Shown here: positions 1 through 5,710 of the stretch, piece by piece
Position numbering within the stretch: the first letter of the stretch is position 1
Layout of the letters: each line of letters opens with the position of its first letter
Virus record (IMG/VR): IMGVR_UViG_2651869755_000011
Coordinates: 1-5,710 of that record
DNA: 5,710 nt
Source: a virus
Taxonomy: Duplodnaviria; Heunggongvirae; Uroviricota; Caudoviricetes
Reading direction: 5' to 3' (one strand)
Program-made: the position numbers and the translations under genes
The notes under the pieces: generated by a model
What the model saw: the letters and a program-made list of their open reading frames with translations, nothing else
Databases searched by the model: none
What the model was told of the DNA's origin: nothing

Positions 1-157
1 TATTGCTTACGCCAGAGAAATAACTGGCTGGCTGCTACACCATGTTGCCGGGCAACGAGGGAGACCGTCATCCCTGGTTCAAAGCTCTGCTGAACAATTG
101 CGATCTTTTCCTGTGTGGTACGCCGTCTGCGTTTCTCCGGTCCTAAGACATCAATCA
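1..157 (-). CDS. insC: IS2 OrfA (InsC) transposase regulator, 5' partial (first ~52 codons; rest is outside the window)
   Basis: Minus-strand translation from the ATG at 155-157 gives [52 protein letters not shown], matching the IS2 OrfA N-terminus as I recall it. It is absent from the ORF track because it runs off the window edge. Confidence 0.85.
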
Positions 158-249
158 TCTGCTCTCCAATGACTAGTCTAAAAACTAGTATTAAGACTAT
201 CACTTAAATAAGTGATATTGGTTGTCTGGTGATTCAGGGGGCCAGTCTA
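1..249 (-). mobile_element. IS2 (IS3 family), left end only; the element continues beyond the window start and its terminus is at 249
   Basis: The reverse complement of 231-249 reads TAGACTGGCCCCCTGAATC, which I recognise as the IS2 left terminus. An IS2 OrfA reading frame opens at the minus-strand ATG at 155-157. Identity is from memory of the IS2 sequence, not a search. Confidence 0.9.
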
Positions 250-250
250 G

Positions 251-346
251 AAGTTTTCTAATGGTATTTTGCGTCGTATAGAGAGAGCCGGACCTGATGA
301 TGACTTTTCTTTAGTAAGTATAATGGTGCGTGTGACGTCAGATTAG
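251..346 (+). pseudogene. Orphan 3' coding remnant abutting the IS2 junction; possibly the C-terminus of a gene split by IS2 (by position a candidate late antiterminator Q, unverified)
   Basis: An open frame runs from the IS2 junction (the in-frame TAG at 248-250 lies across the IS terminus) to TAG at 344-346 and encodes KFSNGILRRIERAGPDDDFSLVSIMVRVTSD. It ends immediately before a promoter-like element, which is the Q / pR' arrangement in lambdoid phages. I do not recognise the peptide. Confidence 0.25.
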
Positions 347-376
347 TTGTATAAACCCAGTAGGGAATGCTAATTT
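347..376 (+). promoter_or_regulatory. Candidate sigma70 promoter (pR'-like by position): -35 TTGTAT (347-352), 18-nt spacer, extended -10 TGcTAATTT (368-376)
   Basis: Motifs read directly from the sequence. A second candidate lies just upstream (perfect TATAAT at 319-324). No experimental support. Confidence 0.3.
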
Positions 377-415
377 CCCATACTACAGAGTAAAGAAAAA
401 CTTAATTTTAATGTG

Positions 416-442
416 AAAAGGCTGCTATCAGGCGGCCTTTTT
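416..442 (+). terminator. Putative intrinsic terminator (tR'-like by position)
   Basis: Stem GGCTGC (420-425) pairs with GCGGCC (432-437), including one G-U pair, around a 6-nt loop, followed by TTTTT (438-442) and preceded by an A-run. Confidence 0.45.
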
Positions 443-450
443 ATGTCTGA

Positions 451-783
451 AAAGCTGTGCAGTACGTTAAACACGCTTGTGGTTGTGAATGCCGACTGCG
501 GCGGTATTTTGGCGTGACAGCGCAGGTGCCGTATACCGATGTCTGGACGCATAAACCGGTGCAGTTCTATCCCGGGAAACATCCGTGCGAAAAACCGGCA
601 GAAATGCTGCAGCAGATAATCAGCGCAAGCAGTCGTCCGGGAGACCTGGTTGCAGATTTTTTTATGGGCTCAGGTTCAACGGTAAAAGCGGCACTGGCGC
701 TCGGGCGTCGTGCGATTGGCGTTGAACTGGAGACCGGACGTTTTGAGCAGACAGTCAGGGAAGTTCAGGATTTAATCGTTTGA
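451..783 (+). pseudogene. N6-adenine (N6/N4 family) DNA methyltransferase, C-terminal remnant; the N-terminal catalytic region is missing
   Basis: The 108-aa ORF (457-783, GTG start) contains HPCEKP and DFFMGSGST, which resemble the conserved HPTQKP and AdoMet-binding F-x-G-x-G motifs at the C-terminal end of beta-class amino-methyltransferases. The frame is closed at 448-450 and the 200 bp upstream is noncoding, so no DPPY catalytic motif can be present. Confidence 0.65.
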
Positions 784-832
784 AACGGATGAGATTGCAG
801 AATTAATTACGCACCATTATTATTCTGCTTCC

Positions 833-908
833 GGCCCTTTAGCTCAGTGGTGAGAGCGAGCGACTCATAATCGCCAGGTCGCTGGTTCAAATCCAGCAAG
901 GGCCACCA
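833..908 (+). tRNA. ileZ: tRNA with CAU anticodon, tRNA-Ile2 (lysidine type, AUA decoder) by similarity to E. coli ileX; tRNA-Met cannot be excluded
   Basis: Manual cloverleaf: acceptor GGCCCTT/AAGGGCC, D-stem GCTC/GAGC, anticodon loop CTCATAA (anticodon 866-868), T-arm GCTGG-TTCAAAT-CCAGC, encoded CCA at 906-908. The symbol follows the ileZ-argN-argO cluster described in Stx-type prophages. Confidence 0.85.
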
Positions 909-915
909 TCACATA

Positions 916-992
916 CCGCCATTAGCTCATCAGGAAAGAGCGCCAGCCTTCGAAGCTGGTTGCGCGGAGTTCGGGTCCCCGAAGGCGGTCCA
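916..992 (+). tRNA. argN: tRNA-Arg(UCG)-like, atypical and possibly degenerate
   Basis: Manual fold: perfect 5-bp anticodon stem CCAGC/GCTGG with loop CTTCGAA (anticodon 950-952), canonical U8/A9, D-stem GCTC/GAGC, encoded CCA at 990-992. It also has an A-A mismatch in the acceptor stem, an A-C mismatch in the T-stem and a T-loop of TTCGGGT (G where A58 is normally conserved). Confidence 0.5.
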
Positions 993-1005
993 TTATCTGT
1001 ATCCT

Positions 1006-1082
1006 GCGTTGTTAGCTCAGCCGGACAGAGCAATTGCCTTCTAAGCAATCGGTCACTGGTTCGAATCCAGTACAACGCGCCA
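1006..1082 (+). tRNA. argO: tRNA-Arg(UCU), AGA decoder
   Basis: Manual cloverleaf with perfect acceptor stem GCGTTGT/ACAACGC, D-stem GCTC/GAGC, anticodon stem ATTGC/GCAAT with loop CTTCTAA (anticodon 1040-1042), T-arm ACTGG-TTCGAAT-CCAGT, discriminator G and CCA at 1080-1082. Confidence 0.85.
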
Positions 1083-1097
1083 CACTTATTTTCCCTG

Positions 1098-1121
1098 GCT
1101 CGCTTTTGCGGGCTTTTTTTT
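1098..1121 (+). terminator. Intrinsic terminator directly after the tRNA cluster
   Basis: Stem GCTCGC (1098-1103) pairs with GCGGGC (1108-1113), one G-U pair, loop TTTT, followed by eight T (1114-1121). Confidence 0.6.
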
Positions 1122-1127
1122 AAATGT

Positions 1128-1341
1128 CTCACAATTCAGGCGGTTGACTGTTGTCTGGTTTGCGGGGAGTTTGTTAAAAGAAACTGGCATGGTGAATCCC
1201 CCTGTGCGGAGGGGCAATCAGCGAGTAGGTATATGGGATAATCGCGGATTCAGGTGCTGGTACTGAATTCACCGGGAGGCACCCGGCACCATGCAATGGC
1301 ACATAGCGCCACTCTCCAGCCCCTCTCCGGAGGGGCTTTTC
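1128..1341 (+). repeat. Copy A of a duplicated noncoding module (candidate small-RNA or regulatory unit) ending in an intrinsic terminator
   Basis: Shares ordered blocks with copy B: CTCACAATTCAG, TTGAC(T/A)GTTG, TTTGTTAAAA(G/A)AAA, GCATGGTGAATCCCCCTG(T/A)GCGGAGGGGC, TGAA(T/C)TCACCGGGAGGCACCCGGCACCATG and AGCCCCTCTCCGGAGGGGCTTT. Internal hairpins include CCCCT/AGGGG and CCGGG/CCCGG. Confidence 0.75.
1319..1340 (+). terminator. Intrinsic terminator closing module copy A
   Basis: 7-bp GC-rich stem GCCCCTC (1319-1325) / GAGGGGC (1330-1336), tetraloop TCCG, then TTTT (1337-1340). There is no U-run on the minus strand, so it acts on the plus strand only. Confidence 0.65.
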
Positions 1342-1396
1342 TGTGCCGGATACATCACAGTTTCTGGAACCTTAGGTACTACAGTATCAGTCAGGG

Positions 1397-1405
1397 TGCT
1401 ATATT
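1397..1405 (+). promoter_or_regulatory. Candidate extended -10 promoter (TGcTATATT) for a short transcript ending at the 1532-1558 terminator
   Basis: TG at 1397-1398 and hexamer TATATT at 1400-1405; no convincing -35. About 150 nt downstream is an intrinsic terminator. Confidence 0.3.
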
Positions 1406-1531
1406 TTCAGATGTGATGAAAGCCTGTCAGCAGGCAGGGCGTATCGGAAATGACCCAGTAGAGAAAACGTTGACTCAGATACCGGTGCTGAGTTACCGGG
1501 AAACCGGCATCACATGACCGCTATCCTTCCA

Positions 1532-1558
1532 GGCCCATCCGCTCCGGTGGGCCTTTTT
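1532..1558 (+). terminator. Intrinsic terminator
   Basis: Stem GGCCCA(T)CCG (1532-1541) pairs with CGGTGGGCC (1545-1553), giving 9 bp with one bulged T around loop CTC, followed by TTTTT (1554-1558). Confidence 0.6.
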
Positions 1559-1595
1559 ACTGCAGAAAACAGGTTCCCCGTTAAATGCTATGTTG

Positions 1596-1829
1596 CTCAC
1601 AATTCAGTAAGTTGACAGTTGCCTGTCAGACTGGGCATTTGTTAAAAAAATTTCGCATGGTGAATCCCCCTGAGCGGAGGGGCGACTGGTGACGGTATAA
1701 TCTCTGATTATCAAAACGAGAATGACGCGGGTTTAGTGGCACCGGGCTGAACTCACCGGGAGGCACCCGGCACCATGTGCATGATGATACAGATACGCGG
1801 CTTTAGCCCCTCTCCGGAGGGGCTTTCTT
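1596..1829 (+). repeat. Copy B of the duplicated noncoding module, ending in an intrinsic terminator
   Basis: Same ordered conserved blocks as copy A, with variable sequence between them. It contains a perfect TTGACA (1612-1617) inside the palindrome TGACAG-N4-CTGTCA (1613-1628) and a perfect TATAAT (1696-1701). Confidence 0.75.
1806..1829 (+). terminator. Intrinsic terminator closing module copy B
   Basis: Stem GCCCCTC (1806-1812) / GAGGGGC (1817-1823), loop TCCG, then TTTCTT. Confidence 0.6.
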
Positions 1830-1835
1830 ATGGAC

Positions 1836-1864
1836 AAAAAAAGCCCGCGCTGGGAGACGCGGGC
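1836..1864 (-). terminator. Minus-strand intrinsic terminator, convergent with the copy-B terminator
   Basis: 7-bp stem GCCCGCG (1843-1849) / CGCGGGC (1858-1864) with an 8-nt loop. On the minus strand the hairpin is followed by seven U (plus-strand A-run 1836-1842); there is no U-run on the plus side. Confidence 0.5.
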
Positions 1865-1932
1865 GGCAAGGAATAAACAATAAAACGTGAAGTAATATTT
1901 CAGCTGGCGAATAATACCCCATAGTAATCACT

Positions 1933-1955
1933 CTGCGCAACTGCGCGGTCTTTTT
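1933..1955 (+). terminator. Intrinsic terminator-like hairpin upstream of the esterase gene
   Basis: Stem CTGCGC (1933-1938) / GCGCGG (1943-1948) with one G-U pair, loop AACT, followed by TCTTTTT (1949-1955). Confidence 0.45.
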
Positions 1956-2057
1956 CGAATTGCGGGCTGTAGTCTCCCTTCTGCCATTGTCCTGTAACTT
2001 CCGGACTTCAGCCTGCTCCTTATCTGACTCACAACATTATCCCGCCCGGGAGGATTC

Positions 2058-3911
2058 ATGGCATTTAAACACTATGACGTGGTCAGGGCGGCATCGCCGT
2101 CAGACCTTGCGAAACGACTGACACAAAAACTGAAGGAGGGCTGGCAGCCGTTTGGTAGTCCGGTGGCCATAACCCCTTATACCCTGATGCAGGCGATTGC
2201 AGCAGAAGGTGATGTGGTCGTCAGTGGTGCAACTGAGCCGGAGTGGTACTACGTCATCGTACTGGCCGGGCAATCCAATGCCATGGCTTACGGTGAAGGG
2301 CTTCCGCTTCCGGATTCATACGATGCGCCCCATCCGCGCATTAAGCAACTGGCCCGTCGTAACACAGTGACTCCCGGTGGTGAAGTATGCGTATTTAACG
2401 ACATCATTCCTGCTGACCATTGTCTGCATGATGTTCAGGATATGAGTACGATTAACCATCCCCGGGCTGACCTGAGCAAAGGGCAGTACGGCTGTGTCGG
2501 ACAGGGCTTACATATTGCCAAAAAACTGCTTCCGTATATCCCTAATAATGCGGGGATCCTGCTGGTACCATGCTGTCGTGGTGGTTCGGCATTCACCCAG
2601 GGCACGGAGGGGACATTCAGCGAGTCCACGGGAGCCAGTCAGGATTCGGCTCGCTGGGGAGTGGGTAAGCCGTTATATCAGGATCTGCTTTTCCGCACGA
2701 AGGCAGCATTGCAGAAAAACCCGAAAAACGTTTTGCTGGCGATATGCTGGATGCAGGGGGAATTCGATATGACGAATGCCAGTTACGCCCAGCAGCCAGC
2801 AGCATTTCTTGCAATGGTACAGCAGTTCCGTGCTGACCTTGCCGGGCTGGCAGCGCAGTGTCACGGTGGAAGTCCGGCATCAGTCCCCTGGATTTGTGGC
2901 GACACGACATACGCGTGGAAACAAGAACACGGTACGCAATATGAAGTGGTATATGGTGCATATAAAGGTAAAGAATCCCAGCAGATTTATTTTGTTCCCT
3001 TTATGACCGATGGTAGCGGAGTTAATACACCGACAAACAACCCGTCAGAAGATCCTGATATTGTCGGGTCTGGTTATTACGGTTCGGCATCCCGAACGAA
3101 CAAAAACTGGGTATCATCAAATCGCCCGACGCATTTCAGCTCATGGGCGCGTCGTGGCATTATTCCCGATCGTATGGCAACTGCTATTCTGAACGTAGCC
3201 GGTCGCACCTTAGCCTTCATTAGTGGTAAGGCACCGGAAATCAAACTCTCGCCCGGCGGCGACACGCCATCGGGGCCGTCTGAAGATGCATCCATACGCA
3301 CAATCTCCCTGTTGCCGACAGCCGGAGACGCTGCTGCGCAGGGCTGGAGCATTAAGAATGGCGGAATTCAGTTGTCAGATGGTGTATTTAAGATCACCAA
3401 GCAGAGCAATAAAGCCTGGTCCCTGACGCGCCCGGTGGATGACGCAGTCTCCCTGCTGACACGGGGTGGCAGACTGAGCTGTAAGTTTCGACTGTCAGGC
3501 GCACTGACCAACAATCAGTTCGGTCTGGGAATTTATCTGTATACCGATGTAGCGTTACCTGACGTCGTGGCGATGACCGGGACTGGTAACCCGTTCCTGA
3601 TGTCGTTCTTCACCCAGACCACAGACGGCAAACTGAATCTGATGCATCACAAGAAAGCAGGAAACACAAAGTTGGGCGAGTTCGGGAATTACAGTAACGA
3701 CTGGCAGACGCTGGAGCTGGTGTTCACCGCCGGCAGTGCCACGGTTACTCCGAAACTGAATGGAGTGGCTGGCCCGGCATTCCAGGTCATAAAAGACAGT
3801 CTGACACTGGGGCTGAATGCGCTGACGCTGACGGATATTACCAAAAATGCAGCGTATGGCGTTGAGATAGAAAGTCTGGTGCTGGAGATAAATGCACCGG
3901 CATCATCATAA
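2058..3911 (+). CDS. nanS-p: Prophage-encoded sialate (N-acetylneuraminate) O-acetylesterase, NanS-p-like: N-terminal DUF1737-like region, SGNH/SASA esterase core, long C-terminal domain of unclear function
   Basis: 617-aa ORF with SD GGGAGG 7 nt upstream of the ATG. The N-terminus MAFKHYDVVRAASPSDLAKRLTQKLKEGWQPFGSPV and the esterase block I motif VIVLAGQSNAMAYGEG (putative catalytic Ser73) match the NanS-p family of EHEC prophages as I know it. The position after the tRNA cluster and before the holin is typical. Confidence 0.88.
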   Translation: MAFKHYDVVRAASPSDLAKRLTQKLKEGWQPFGSPVAITPYTLMQAIAAEGDVVVSGATEPEWYYVIVLAGQSNAMAYGEGLPLPDSYDAPHPRIKQLARRNTVTPGGEVCVFNDIIPADHCLHDVQDMSTINHPRADLSKGQYGCVGQGLHIAKKLLPYIPNNAGILLVPCCRGGSAFTQGTEGTFSESTGASQDSARWGVGKPLYQDLLFRTKAALQKNPKNVLLAICWMQGEFDMTNASYAQQPAAFLAMVQQFRADLAGLAAQCHGGSPASVPWICGDTTYAWKQEHGTQYEVVYGAYKGKESQQIYFVPFMTDGSGVNTPTNNPSEDPDIVGSGYYGSASRTNKNWVSSNRPTHFSSWARRGIIPDRMATAILNVAGRTLAFISGKAPEIKLSPGGDTPSGPSEDASIRTISLLPTAGDAAAQGWSIKNGGIQLSDGVFKITKQSNKAWSLTRPVDDAVSLLTRGGRLSCKFRLSGALTNNQFGLGIYLYTDVALPDVVAMTGTGNPFLMSFFTQTTDGKLNLMHHKKAGNTKLGEFGNYSNDWQTLELVFTAGSATVTPKLNGVAGPAFQVIKDSLTLGLNALTLTDITKNAAYGVEIESLVLEINAPASS

Positions 3912-3996
3912 AAAGTGAGCCAGCCAAATGGAAGGTATCGTTAAACTCACCGGTAGTGTCAGTGGGTCGTCTGAGATGCCTGCATGAGTTATCAGA

Positions 3997-4026
3997 GCCA
4001 TCAGTACTTAACTGGTGGCTTTTTTT
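3997..4026 (+). terminator. Intrinsic terminator between the esterase gene and the holin
   Basis: 8-bp stem GCCATCAG (3997-4004) / CTGGTGGC (4012-4019) with one G-U pair, 7-nt loop, followed by TTTTTTT (4020-4026). Confidence 0.5.
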
Positions 4027-4061
4027 ATTGTTGTCAGCTTCCGGATAACGGGAGACGGGGT

Positions 4062-4277
4062 ATGTACCAGATGGAAAAAATCACAACAGGTGTGTCATAC
4101 ACCACGTCAGCGGTGGGAACGGGCTACTGGTTCCTGCAGTTGCTGGACAGGGTTTCCCCGTCTCAGTGGGCGGCAATAGGCGTGCTGGGGAGTCTGCTGT
4201 TTGGGCTGCTGACATATCTGACTAACCTGTATTTCAAAATCAGAGAGGACCGTCGTAAGGCTGCACGGGGAGAGTAA
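4062..4277 (+). CDS. S: Class II holin (phage 21 S-type pinholin), 71 aa, with dual-start motif MYQM (Met1 at 4062, Met4 at 4071)
   Basis: [71 protein letters not shown] closely resembles the phage 21 S protein as I recall it, with two hydrophobic segments and a charged C-terminus. SD GGAGACGGGG lies upstream. The ORF-track start at 3984 would add an N-terminal extension that overlaps the upstream terminator and has no RBS. Confidence 0.85.
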
Positions 4278-4281
4278 TTCA

Positions 4282-4626
4282 ATGACTCAAAACTATAAAC
4301 TGATTGTGAAAGGGATCCGCAATTTTGAGAATAAAGTTACGGTAACTTTAGCGTTACGGGACAAAAAACGCTTTGACGGTGAAATTTTTGACCTGGACAT
4401 CTCGCTGGACCGTGTTGAAGGTGCCGCGCTGGAGTTTTATGAGGCAGCAGCCAGAAGGAGCATCAGACAGGTCTTCCTGGATGTTGCTGCCGGGTTATGT
4501 GAAGGGGATGAGCAGTCGCCGGAAAAGCGCCCCGTAATTTTAGAGGCGCAGGATGTGTTGATAACCTACAGAGGAAAACTACCGGGAATAATTACGGGTT
4601 CTCTGAAGAGTCCGCCGAAATGGTAA
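4282..4626 (+). CDS. Hypothetical 114-aa protein inserted between holin and endolysin (function unknown; possibly comparable to the uncharacterised genes found between S and R in some E. coli prophages)
   Basis: ATG at 4282 is 4 nt after the holin stop, with SD GGGGAGAG at 4267-4274, so it is translationally coupled to the holin. The sequence looks like ordinary coding sequence. I do not recognise the protein. Confidence 0.6.
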   Translation: MTQNYKLIVKGIRNFENKVTVTLALRDKKRFDGEIFDLDISLDRVEGAALEFYEAAARRSIRQVFLDVAAGLCEGDEQSPEKRPVILEAQDVLITYRGKLPGIITGSLKSPPKW

Positions 4627-4864
4627 TTTTACCAGCATATTTTTCATCCAGTAATACAGCAAGCCGCCTGAAAGAGTCTTGTTGTTCCTGAGACCATTTG
4701 GGATTGCATGATTCAAACTGGATTGATGCCAGCGTTGATTGCATCTGTTCCCTTGGAATTGAGAATGCCAGATATGAGAAGGCGACGGTAAGGGTATTCA
4801 CGTCTTCCCGAAGCCTGGAAATGCTGTCGAGCAACTCCTGTAGAGAAATGGTGTTATTGTCCAT
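4592..4864 (-). CDS. Possible 90-aa hypothetical protein on the opposite strand, convergent with and overlapping the 3' end of the 114-aa ORF by 35 nt
   Basis: Minus-strand ATG (4862-4864) is preceded by SD GAGGA at 7-nt spacing. A promoter-like pair lies upstream on the minus strand (TTGCCT, 19-nt spacer, TACAAT). It fills most of an otherwise unexplained 343-bp gap between ORF114 and the endolysin. No recognisable homology. Confidence 0.4.
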   Translation of the reverse strand: MDNNTISLQELLDSISRLREDVNTLTVAFSYLAFSIPREQMQSTLASIQFESCNPKWSQEQQDSFRRLAVLLDEKYAGKITISADSSENP

Positions 4865-4896
4865 AAATAATCCTCATGATTGTATTGACCTGTTAG

Positions 4897-4916
4897 CAGC
4901 CTGAGGCAACAGGCTG
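4897..4916. promoter_or_regulatory. Perfect 7-bp inverted repeat CAGCCTG-N6-CAGGCTG between the putative minus-strand gene and the endolysin; candidate operator
   Basis: Read directly. There is no U-run on either side, so it is unlikely to be a terminator. It overlaps the -35/spacer of the putative minus-strand promoter. Confidence 0.3.
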
Positions 4917-4969
4917 GAACTGATAAACATATCCAGGGCTCAGAAACCGATAAATCCTGATAAATATCC

Positions 4970-5623
4970 ATGAACGCAAAAATCAGATACGGCCTGTCGG
5001 CTGCCGTTCTGGCGCTGATTGCCGCTGGTGCGCCTGACATTCTCGACCAGTTTCTGGATGAAAAGGAAGGTAACCACACCACGGCATACCGTGATGGCGC
5101 GGGTATCTGGACCATCTGCCGCGGTGCCATCCTGGTGGATGGCAAACCTGTCGTTCCGGGCATGAAGTTGTCGAAGGAAAAATGCGACCGGGTTAACGCC
5201 ATTGAGCGTGATAAGGCGCTGGCATGGGTGGAGAAAAACATCAAAGTGCCATTGACCGAACCCCAGAAAGCGGGGATCGCGTCATTCTGTCCGTACAACA
5301 TTGGTCCCGGTAAGTGTTTCCCGTCGACGTTTTACAGACGAATTAATGCTGGCGATCGCAGGGGAGCATGTGAGGCGATTCGCTGGTGGATTAAGGACGG
5401 TGGCAGAGACTGCCGTATTCGTTCAAATAACTGCTATGGACAGGTCTCACGGCGTGACCAGGTGAACCGCCCCGGGTTTCCTGGAGAGTATTTTATCTGT
5501 GAACTCAGGCTGCCAGATCATCGTTTCCGATGGAAGCATAATAAGCTTTTTCTGCTTCTGCCGGAGGAGTATGGCCCAGCCTTTCCAGCAATCGTCGATT
5601 GTTATACCAGTCCACCCACGTGA
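4970..5623 (+). CDS. R: SAR-type phage endolysin (T4-lysozyme-like muramidase, phage 21 R type), 3' end disrupted by IS insertion: codons 1-164 (4970-5461) are native, the last 53 codons are IS-derived
   Basis: N-terminal signal-anchor-release segment MNAKIRYGLSAAVLALIAAGAP, catalytic E33/D42/T48 spacing (E-8x-D-5x-T) and overall similarity to phage 21 R. The frame runs straight from ...YGQVSRRDQ into the IS terminus TGAACCGCCCC at 5463. Family members are about 165-185 aa, so roughly 10-15 native C-terminal residues appear to be replaced. Confidence 0.8.
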   Translation: MNAKIRYGLSAAVLALIAAGAPDILDQFLDEKEGNHTTAYRDGAGIWTICRGAILVDGKPVVPGMKLSKEKCDRVNAIERDKALAWVEKNIKVPLTEPQKAGIASFCPYNIGPGKCFPSTFYRRINAGDRRGACEAIRWWIKDGGRDCRIRSNNCYGQVSRRDQVNRPGFPGEYFICELRLPDHRFRWKHNKLFLLLPEEYGPAFPAIVDCYTSPPT

Positions 5624-5710
5624 GTGTGGCCAGTTCCACTTCTGCACGGTTTTTCCAGCTCTTACGGTGTATTACCTCCGCTTTGTAAAGACCATTGATG
5701 CTCTCCGCCA
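5463..5710 (-). mobile_element. IS629/IS1203-like IS3-family element, right end only (continues beyond the window end), inserted into the endolysin gene
   Basis: Terminal inverted repeat TGAACCGCCCCGGGTTTCCTGGAGAGT at 5463-5489. The minus strand encodes the C-terminus of an IS3-family OrfB transposase ending LERLGHTPPAEAEKAYYASIGNDDLAA, which I recognise as IS629-like from memory. Confidence 0.85.
5505..5710 (-). CDS. IS3-family transposase OrfB, C-terminal fragment (5' part outside the window)
   Basis: Minus-strand translation AESINGLYKAEVIHRKSWKNRAEVELATLTWVDWYNNRRLLERLGHTPPAEAEKAYYASIGNDDLAA with stop codon at 5505-5507 (TGA on the minus strand). Confidence 0.85.
   Translation of the reverse strand, partial: AESINGLYKAEVIHRKSWKNRAEVELATLTWVDWYNNRRLLERLGHTPPAEAEKAYYASIGNDDLAA

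Follow-up and report, generated by a model that had tools for sequence, protein, structure and literature searches.

What fills the 692 bp that separate the holin stop codon from the endolysin start codon in the late region of an Escherichia coli lambdoid prophage of the Shiga toxin (Stx)-phage type, and do the two open reading frames (ORFs) found there, one on each strand, belong together? The question is raised by a viral stretch of 5,710 nt (IMG/VR record IMGVR_UViG_2651869755_000011, positions 1 to 5,710; hereafter the window), for which a first-pass annotation, made from the letters alone, had described an unexplained two-gene insert: a plus-strand gene of 114 codons coupled to the holin (ORF114), and a convergent minus-strand gene of 90 codons (ORF90) that overlaps its 3′ end and has its own ribosome-binding site, promoter-like signal and palindrome. 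The coordinates, the 4-nt coupling, the Shine-Dalgarno (SD) sites, the TTGCCT-19-TACAAT motif and the 7-bp palindrome of that description all proved exact on re-reading (Table 1). As argued below, the ~690-bp ‘insert’ probably represents two accessory genes, independent of each other, in a mosaic lambdoid prophage, namely a late gene of the YdfR family and a moron-like antisense cargo gene. The former starts (ATG at 4282) 4 nt after the holin stop codon (TAA, 4275-4277), a gap that recurs between holin and ydfR in the Qin prophage of K-12 and at every locus examined; the latter reaches into the 343 bp (4627-4969) that lie between the end of ORF114 and the lysozyme ATG (4970).

ORF114 and ORF90 are independent accessory genes, not a functional or obligate pair, because each is found without the other, their copy numbers are unequal, mosaic breakpoints fall between them, and an unrelated gene can occupy the same slot. 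The first 239 nt of ORF114 occur at 8,603 places in 4,348 of the 5,426 complete E. coli genomes, and the ORF90 region at 1,338 places in 1,207 of them, i.e. at about one sixth of the ydfR copies. In K-12 Qin, the order is essQ-ydfR-rrrQ, with a 4-nt gap after essQ, a 4-nt overlap onto the endolysin gene and no ORF90; O157-type prophages likewise have ydfR, 50 nt and then the lysozyme gene, again without ORF90. The opposite case is found in loci L085 and L086, where ORF90 is intact, the N-terminal domain of ydfR is gone and its remnant is riddled with stop codons. Mosaic breakpoints between the genes are evident from copies in which the N-terminal part of ydfR is 99% identical where ORF90 is 87% identical, and from locus L064, with 59% identity in the former and 100% in the latter. 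The two-gene insert of the first-pass annotation is thus not supported as a functional unit, and the ‘small accessory cargo module’ that it had listed as one option is the best description of ORF90.

The exchangeable module comprises ORF90 codons 1-81 and the 5′ leader, with junctions near 4620 and 4925, and the G+C content is 42-47% over 4550-4950 vs 50-59% in the holin gene, the ydfR core and the lysozyme gene, a modest difference. What else can enter this slot? In prophages that encode a long YdfR of 176 residues, it is occupied by ORF86, likewise antisense, whose product is an acidic protein of 86 residues (isoelectric point 4.6). ORF86 shares 53 nt with the 3′ end of ydfR, has its own SD site (GAGGTG), carries upstream a stable 8-bp palindrome (CGCCAGTG-N5-CACTGGCG) and occurs at 335 places, spread over 314 E. 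coli genomes. Homology between ORF90 and ORF86 was considered and rejected (hhalign probability 0.3%). The slot lies inside the lysis cassette throughout the enterobacterial prophages examined. In E. coli B/BL21, ORF90 is carried by a Rac remnant with the order essD-ydfR-ORF90-rrrQ. The genes 3′ of the ORF90 slot differ between loci (L093, 1285-2322, minus strand; L085/L086, 1089-1623, minus strand): past the slot, the lysozyme gene of some prophages gives way to a second and unrelated lysis set (holin_8, holin_3_7 and an M15 peptidase), and others have a ParE/ParD toxin-antitoxin pair after the lysozyme gene. On a Citrobacter-type contig (L082), the ORF convergent with the ORF90 homologue (488-721, minus strand) encodes a short coiled-coil protein without the DUF1327 N-terminal domain, whose end (...KITGSLRAPIKL; YdfR-like ITGSLRAPIKL) resembles that of the YdfR core; a small membrane protein is encoded upstream, at the holin position.

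Does the overlap of the two 3′ ends mean anything, as the first-pass annotation had supposed? ORF90 codons 80-90 have a ratio of non-synonymous to synonymous polymorphism (pN/pS) of 1.08 vs 0.31 for the remainder of the gene, and the tail that they encode is predicted to be disordered, with a predicted local distance difference test score (pLDDT) below 50. Homology to the ydfR core of the ORF86-type prophage L103 extends to ~4619, inside ORF90 codon 82, and this left junction at ~4619/4620 means that the last nine codons of ORF90 and its stop codon come from antisense ydfR-core DNA. The overlap is therefore best explained by ORF90 running incidentally into antisense ydfR, as a by-product of a recombination junction; what had looked like a meaningful arrangement amounts to 11 unconstrained codons of a disordered tail laid across that junction.

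The minus-strand frame is a genuine gene under purifying selection and passes the refutation test set in the first-pass annotation, on the grounds that it is open in all alleles, is constrained at the protein level, keeps its SD site, stands out in a frame control and belongs to a small but genuine family. Altogether 62 homologues were found, mostly of 90 residues, and 92 copies from IMG/VR, metagenomes and genomes collapse into 19 unique coding sequences, diverged relatives included, every one of which is intact (19/19; 83-90 residues). The median pairwise Nei-Gojobori ratio of non-synonymous to synonymous substitution rates (dN/dS) is 0.26, with dS saturating for Citrobacter-type copies, and the variable columns are distributed over codon positions 1, 2 and 3 as 50/36/75. 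In the six-frame control, the ORF90 frame alone is free of stop codons; the plus-strand frame that shares its third positions gives an equal pN/pS (0.36), which is to be expected, but is interrupted by stops. The ATG and the SD site are conserved across alleles, the latter as GAGGAT in 7/9 E. coli-type alleles and as AAGGAT in L086 and in Citrobacter-type copies. The match to phrog_2411 spans the whole profile (1-90 of 90); a profile search against 1.8 billion representatives returned just 21 clusters. Homologues of the protein in other genera reach profile E-values of 1e-6, and strong purifying selection acts on these as well. The most distant relatives (P0065 and P0072) were not located in IMG/VR.

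The ORF90 product is an acidic (isoelectric point 4.5), soluble protein of 10 kDa, modelled by AlphaFold2 (AF2; pLDDT 74.9) as three helices (residues 8-35, 38-52 and 59-77) followed by a disordered tail (79-90). Beyond phrog_2411, no informative sequence or fold match was obtained in Pfam, PHROGs, NCBIfam, PADLOC or fold searches; sub-threshold hits to Mip, ABATE, McrBC and others were set aside as noise. A literature search for ybl58, the RefSeq accessions and antisense morons inside lysis cassettes found nothing. ORF90 is intact in the window despite an insertion sequence (IS) in the endolysin gene, as it is in L091, with an IS in the holin gene, and in L092, where IS66 replaces the endolysin gene. 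In the latter, an Stx-encoding prophage (2380-2500), 42 nt separate the end of IS66 from the downstream ORF90 ATG; the insertion has removed the palindrome's left arm, some of the -35 element of promoter candidate P1 and all of candidate P2 (both defined below), and yet the ORF90 allele of this locus is intact and occurs on many contigs.

Relatives of ORF90 are also found away from prophages. In six Serratia species, near pyrC and solA, a gene for a protein of 92-93 residues lies between dinI and bssS, with pN/pS values among the six species of 0.07-0.21, and a relative of 97 residues has the same position in one uncultured Enterobacterales genome; in E. coli K-12, dinI and bssS are separated by a 286-bp intergenic region without any gene.

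ORF114, by contrast with ORF90, belongs to a long-known family. It matches Pfam PF07041 (DUF1327) with 142.6 bits (cut-off 25; E 4.5e-42) over profile positions 1-91 of 93 and phrog_406 with E 1.9e-67, is named ‘YdfR family protein’ by the Prokaryotic Genome Annotation Pipeline (PGAP), and lies directly 3′ of a class II (P21-type) holin gene, the same layout as essQ-ydfR in K-12. Neither protein had been recognised in the first pass; one is YdfR/DUF1327 and the other phrog_2411/‘Ybl58’, and RefSeq annotates both in more than 1,000 complete genomes. The family has a core of ~112 residues ending in ...ITGSLKxPP. ORF114 consists of this conserved core (residues 1-112) plus a 2-residue, module-specific end: alleles that bear ORF90 stop within 2-4 residues past the core, other alleles continue for 65-70 residues to give 176- and 183-residue forms, and K-12 YdfR (103 residues) departs earlier, after about residue 68. 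Of the 72 N-terminal residues, 58 are identical between ORF114 and K-12 YdfR. The AF2 model has a pLDDT of 56, with an N-terminal domain (approximately residues 4-73) of beta-beta-beta-alpha topology and a remainder of low confidence; Foldseek against the PDB gave only matches with E-values of at least 0.26, and a profile search of PDB sequences was empty. The structure and profile searches suggested in the first pass thus named the family of ORF114 and left the folds of both proteins uninformative. ORF114 has no transmembrane segment (the maximal 19-residue Kyte-Doolittle means of both proteins are 0.69-0.75).

In the literature, YdfR was found only in a 2026 paper on RNase E and in gene lists, and DUF1327 in one passing mention. 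According to that paper, residues 1-72 of K-12 YdfR mediate its binding to the N-terminal, catalytic half of RNase E (residues 1-597), as detected by two-hybrid and pull-down assays; RNA co-purifies with YdfR, and its overproduction changed few transcripts and was not toxic (PMC13232886). The same paper cites an envelope-integrity screen in K-12 that hit ydfR (PMC13232886).

From where might ORF90 be transcribed? The promoter proposed in the first pass (candidate P1) is present and scores highly: its position-weight score is 10.8, compared with a mean of 6.9 +/- 1.9 and a maximum of 10.9 for the best sites in random 203-nt stretches of the window. Its TACAAT element is found in 7/9 alleles, the -35 element varies (TTGAAT, TTAGCT, CTGAAT, TCGACT), and a consensus scanner, which allows spacers of 16-18 nt, does not call it, the P1 spacer being 19 nt. 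Moreover, its -10 element ends 14 nt before the ATG, such that a normal start site would cut off most of the conserved SD site, which makes P1 doubtful as a promoter. Candidate P2 has an ordinary score (8.4), and its motif is invariant in all ORF90 alleles as well as in the non-homologous ORF86 module of L103; a P2 transcript would begin with a palindrome hairpin in both modules and would keep the ORF90 SD site. P2 falls within a GATAAA-rich block adjoining the lysozyme start (4926-4969) that is more conserved than the ORF90 coding sequence and of which K-12 Qin has only the last ~12 nt; it might serve both prophage types as a common leftward promoter, or act as a leader for translation of the endolysin gene.

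The palindrome that the first pass had placed over the promoter does exist, but its core (CTG-N6-CAG) is what is widely kept, and the full 7-bp form is seen only in window-type alleles and in L084. Perfect 7-bp inverted repeats with 3-8-nt loops are common in the window (12 overlapping hits at ~7 sites; 2.4 +/- 1.9 in composition-matched simulations), and a single palindrome at a given spot therefore proves nothing. Folded as RNA, the window hairpin has a z-score of -1.2, no better than shuffled sequences, vs -3.9 for the hairpin of the ORF86 module. A reading of the palindrome as a LexA box was rejected by eye, as it has CTG-N6-CAG and LexA needs CTG-N10-CAG. On the other side of ORF90, a terminator scan found no terminator-like site before the holin gene, the first one (4103-4089) lying inside it; a GC stem (9-nt loop, 4 Ts) seen by eye ~45-75 nt past the ORF90 stop codon lies in conserved ydfR coding sequence and was not counted. 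An Rfam scan of 4282-4969 returned no RNA family.

Taken together, these observations suggest the following course of events. ORF114 would form part of the late-operon transcript that includes the lysis genes, and its translation would be coupled to that of the P21-type holin; its product would be soluble and cytoplasmic. By homology with K-12 YdfR, the most likely binding targets of its N-terminal domain in late lytic growth would be the catalytic half of RNase E, RNA or both, so that it would act on RNA turnover and not on the membrane step of lysis. ORF90 would have been acquired separately, on the opposite strand; it fills an exchangeable slot that extends from the ydfR core to the endolysin gene, and may be transcribed, independently of the late operon, from a promoter of its own in the spacer near the endolysin start. 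Its product, modelled as an acidic cytoplasmic three-helix protein, would most likely work by binding another protein. The role of ORF90 is probably host-directed, i.e. concerned with the physiology of the lysogen rather than with control of lysis, given the purifying selection on the gene, the stand-alone relatives in Serratia and its survival where lysis genes have been hit by IS elements.

Several points weigh against this reading. Neither promoter candidate is convincing, as P1 would start transcription within the SD site and P2 has an ordinary score; a search of the literature found no transcript data for ORF90; and, with no clear terminator after ORF90, the ‘own promoter plus terminator’ hallmark of morons is at most putative. 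The adjacency of ORF90 to the end of the ydfR core must be old, since the partner of the most diverged copy (L082) still carries a YdfR-like core end, and this weakens the notion that the two genes are fully independent. The RNase E link comes from a single overproduction study of a 69%-identical homologue and would extend to ORF114 by homology. The invariant place of ydfR, together with its tight coupling to holin and endolysin in K-12, would also fit a role in lysis. Finally, fold searches are nonspecific for both proteins, and the proposed protein binding of ORF90 is therefore a guess from size, charge and helicity.

The lysis role just mentioned is a serious rival in view of the invariant position of ydfR, even if it appears unlikely on balance. 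ORF114 might be a cytoplasmic lysis regulator, antiholin-like or involved in endolysin release, made in a fixed ratio to the holin, its RNase E binding being irrelevant. Such a role would explain why ydfR is constantly found 4 nt after a P21-type holin gene and overlaps the endolysin start by 4 nt in K-12, why the family is restricted to this holin-adjacent position in thousands of prophages, and why ydfR was hit in the envelope-integrity screen. However, phage 21 lyses with S, R and Rz only, and the screen hit could reflect polarity of the deletion cassette on the downstream endolysin gene. ORF114 has neither a membrane segment nor any similarity to known antiholins, releasins or spanins: comparison with S21-71, T4 RI and RIII, P1 LydB and the Mu releasin gave no family match for ORF114 or ORF90, and neither contains a membrane or periplasmic domain. 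Of the features of lysis regulators, location in the late transcript with holin and endolysin is found for ORF114, and ORF90 lies on the opposite strand. The sole direct biochemistry, moreover, concerns RNase E and RNA (PMC13232886).

A more doubtful alternative turns the antisense orientation of ORF90 itself into a lysis-timing or safety device, in which leftward transcription from near the endolysin gene would run antisense across ydfR and the holin gene and, by pairing or colliding with leaky late transcripts in the lysogen, would silence holin and endolysin, or the ORF90 protein would modulate the pinholin or the signal-anchor-release (SAR) endolysin. Its attraction lies in the convergence of ORF90 with the late operon without any strong minus-strand terminator before the holin gene, in the constant location of the slot inside the lysis cassette of enterobacterial prophages, and in the finding that two unrelated occupants, ORF90 and ORF86, share the upstream block and each have a 5′ hairpin, which fits selection on antisense transcription as such. 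Yet it is the protein sequence of ORF90, and not only its presence, that is under purifying selection; the Serratia relatives have no lysis genes nearby; any antisense module is absent from the majority of prophages that share these holin, ydfR and lysozyme genes; ORF90 stays intact where the lysis genes have already been inactivated; and both transcript and promoter are putative. A bolder picture, entertained here as a tentative and rather improbable extension, would have a dedicated leftward slot with a shared promoter in the invariant block near the endolysin start and a module-specific 5′ hairpin, in which ORF90 and ORF86, as interchangeable genes for small acidic proteins, would be expressed in the lysogen, their transcript also acting as an antisense brake on leaky holin expression, and next to it YdfR as a widespread prophage-encoded modulator of RNase E, produced along with the lysis proteins.

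A toxin-antitoxin-like pair, another option raised in the first pass, or an anti-phage defence pair, in either of which one product would neutralise the other, might have been suggested by two small, adjacent, overlapping genes, one with candidate autonomous signals, and by the defence genes that prophage accessory slots often carry. This is very improbable: a toxin-antitoxin-like pair is effectively excluded by the distribution of the two genes (8,603 vs 1,338 places, each found without the other) and by their orientation, which is convergent and not that of one operon, and neither protein has a toxin, antitoxin or defence match in PADLOC, Pfam or NCBIfam, overproduced K-12 YdfR is not toxic (PMC13232886), and the Serratia relatives stand alone and away from phage. 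Least credible of all is that ORF90 is no gene but a chance open frame of the spacer, annotated because it is open; although it lacks a Pfam family and shares its pN/pS with a plus-strand frame, that frame has stops, and openness in every allele across saturated synonymous divergence, conserved start signals, the codon-position pattern and homologues under purifying selection dispose of the idea.

The tRNA trio of the window, 3′ of the truncated methyltransferase gene, is the usual set of Stx-phage-type prophages; the CAT tRNA is called Met by ARAGORN and Ile by PGAP in identical prophages. The stretch from the tRNA cluster to the esterase gene contains two strong matches to the small RNA STnc100 (136 and 165 bits; gathering score 47) and a weak one. 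The terminator-like hairpin that follows the esterase gene is contained in a longer, mechanically called holin ORF that stretches upstream to 3984; the holin has a dual-start motif (MYQMEK...), and in identical prophages PGAP calls its gene at 216 nt. No SD site can be recognised before the lysozyme start. By alignment with intact 177-residue relatives, the IS3-family element interrupts the lysozyme gene at about codon 165 of 177, and the last 11 residues are swapped for read-through sequence; in addition, two residues (AP) that near-identical relatives and K-12 RrrQ contain are missing from the hydrophobic N-terminal segment, owing to a 6-nt deletion at codons 21-22 (window ~5030-5035; AAG--APDIL vs AAGAPAPDIL). 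The endolysin of this prophage is thus probably defective, with ydfR and ORF90 intact.

Table 1. Coordinates of the features discussed (window positions unless a locus is named)
Feature	Position	Strand	Basis or remark
Truncated N6/N4 DNA methyltransferase gene	457-783
Three tRNA genes	833-1082	+	anticodons CAT, TCG (Arg), TCT (Arg)
STnc100 small RNA	1158-1348, 1626-1835; weak third copy 1387-1560	+	Rfam RF02076
SASA/NanS-p-type esterase, 617 residues	2058-3911
Terminator-like hairpin	3994-4032	+	12-bp stem, then TTTTTATTGTT; between esterase gene and holin start
Class II (phage P21 S-type) holin, 71 residues	4062..4277	+	Pfam PF04971 Phage_holin_2_1, E 2.3e-32
SD-like site of ORF114, GGGGAGAG	4267..4274	+	inside last holin codons; direct reading
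ORF114, YdfR family (DUF1327), 114 residues	4282..4626	+	Pfam PF07041; phrog_406
Convergent ORF114/ORF90 3′ overlap, 35 nt	4592..4626	both
ORF90 (‘Ybl58’/phrog_2411), 90 residues	4592..4864	-	phrog_2411, E 1.1e-58; RefSeq WP_000369850.1
Exchangeable antisense cargo module	4620..4925	-	junctions vs L103, L085, K-12
ORF90 SD site, GAGGA	4871..4875	-	6 nt before ATG; direct reading
Promoter candidate P1	4879..4909	-	TTGCCT (4909..4904), 19 nt, TACAAT (4884..4879)
Palindrome CAGCCTG-N6-CAGGCTG	4897..4916		perfect 7-bp
Promoter candidate P2	4926..4954	-	TTTATC (4954..4949), 17 nt, TATGTT (4931..4926)
Conserved GATAAA-rich block	4926..4969		common to ORF90- and ORF86-type prophages
SAR-type phage lysozyme (endolysin)	4970..5462	+	Pfam PF00959, E 2e-23
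IS3-family element	5463-5710		inverted repeat TGAACCGCCCCGGG...; transposase C-terminus 5505-5639, minus strand
ORF86, alternative slot occupant	L103:2979-3239 (minus strand), also L104		prophages with 176-residue YdfR
Serratia/Enterobacterales relatives of ORF90	L096-L102, ~2968-3250	+	stand-alone chromosomal genes

What is then gained? The arrangement is an ordinary, already annotated lambdoid mosaic: a megablast search with 3900-5500 found it, with a query coverage of 80% or more, in 1,101 of the 5,426 complete E. coli genomes, where PGAP labels it ‘class II holin / YdfR family protein / hypothetical protein / lysozyme’. The additions made here are the proof that ORF90 is a gene, the independence of the two genes, the exchangeable slot with its unrelated occupant, and the chromosomal relatives in Serratia. 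Their value is mainly one of clarification, in that a seemingly coupled, antisense pair resolves into the common late gene YdfR and a swap-in cargo gene. Most E. coli genomes have ydfR placed between the holin and endolysin genes, and the recent link of YdfR to RNase E makes its role testable; ORF90 represents a tiny family that is core-chromosomal in Serratia and prophage-borne in Escherichia, and its sharing of one slot with the unrelated ORF86, of the same size and charge, hints at lysogen-expressed factors inside lysis cassettes. Neither point alters the current understanding of phage lysis.

How do the two genes compare with what is already known? At the corresponding position, FDAARGOS_1249 encodes a 90-residue product identical to that of ORF90, there named WP_000369850.1 by PGAP, as do at least 52 IMG/VR loci; ORF90 belongs to the same family as phrog_2411, from which it differs in nothing. 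The Serratia protein, which is ~35% identical to ORF90 (profile E ~1e-6), has in common with it a VAFSYLAFS helix, an ES-x-N motif, size, helical character and purifying selection; it differs in being encoded by a stand-alone gene of the core genome with its own terminator and without any prophage or lysis cassette around it.

K-12 YdfR (b1555, Qin) and ORF114 share their family, their N-terminal domain and their place 4 nt after a P21-type holin. They differ in that ORF114 has the commoner 112-residue core (GLCEGDE...ITGSLKxPP) and is followed by a 343-bp spacer with an antisense gene, whereas the 103-residue K-12 protein diverges after about residue 68 and its gene overlaps the endolysin start. 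Phage proteins that target RNase E include T4 Srd, T7 gp0.7 and phiKZ Dip. Should the K-12 result transfer to ORF114, it would be another RNase E binder and, like T4 Srd, one directed at the N-terminal catalytic half; it has no sequence or fold similarity to Srd, gp0.7 or Dip and, unlike them, belongs to the lysis cassette of temperate phages and has a K-12 homologue whose overproduction barely affects the transcriptome.

For ORF90, the closest parallel is with the morons of lambdoid phages described by Juhala, Hendrix and colleagues, e.g. lambda bor, which lies beside the lysis genes on the opposite strand and is expressed in the lysogen. ORF90 resembles them as a small extra gene found at a fixed junction in some of a set of homologous prophages, oriented opposite to the late operon, with its own ribosome-binding site, a lower G+C content than its flanks and persistence in decaying prophages. 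It departs from them in that its product is predicted to be an acidic cytoplasmic protein, whereas Bor and Lom are lipoprotein or outer-membrane proteins, in that its 3′ end reads into the neighbouring gene, and in its place inside the lysis cassette and not, as for bor, at its edge.

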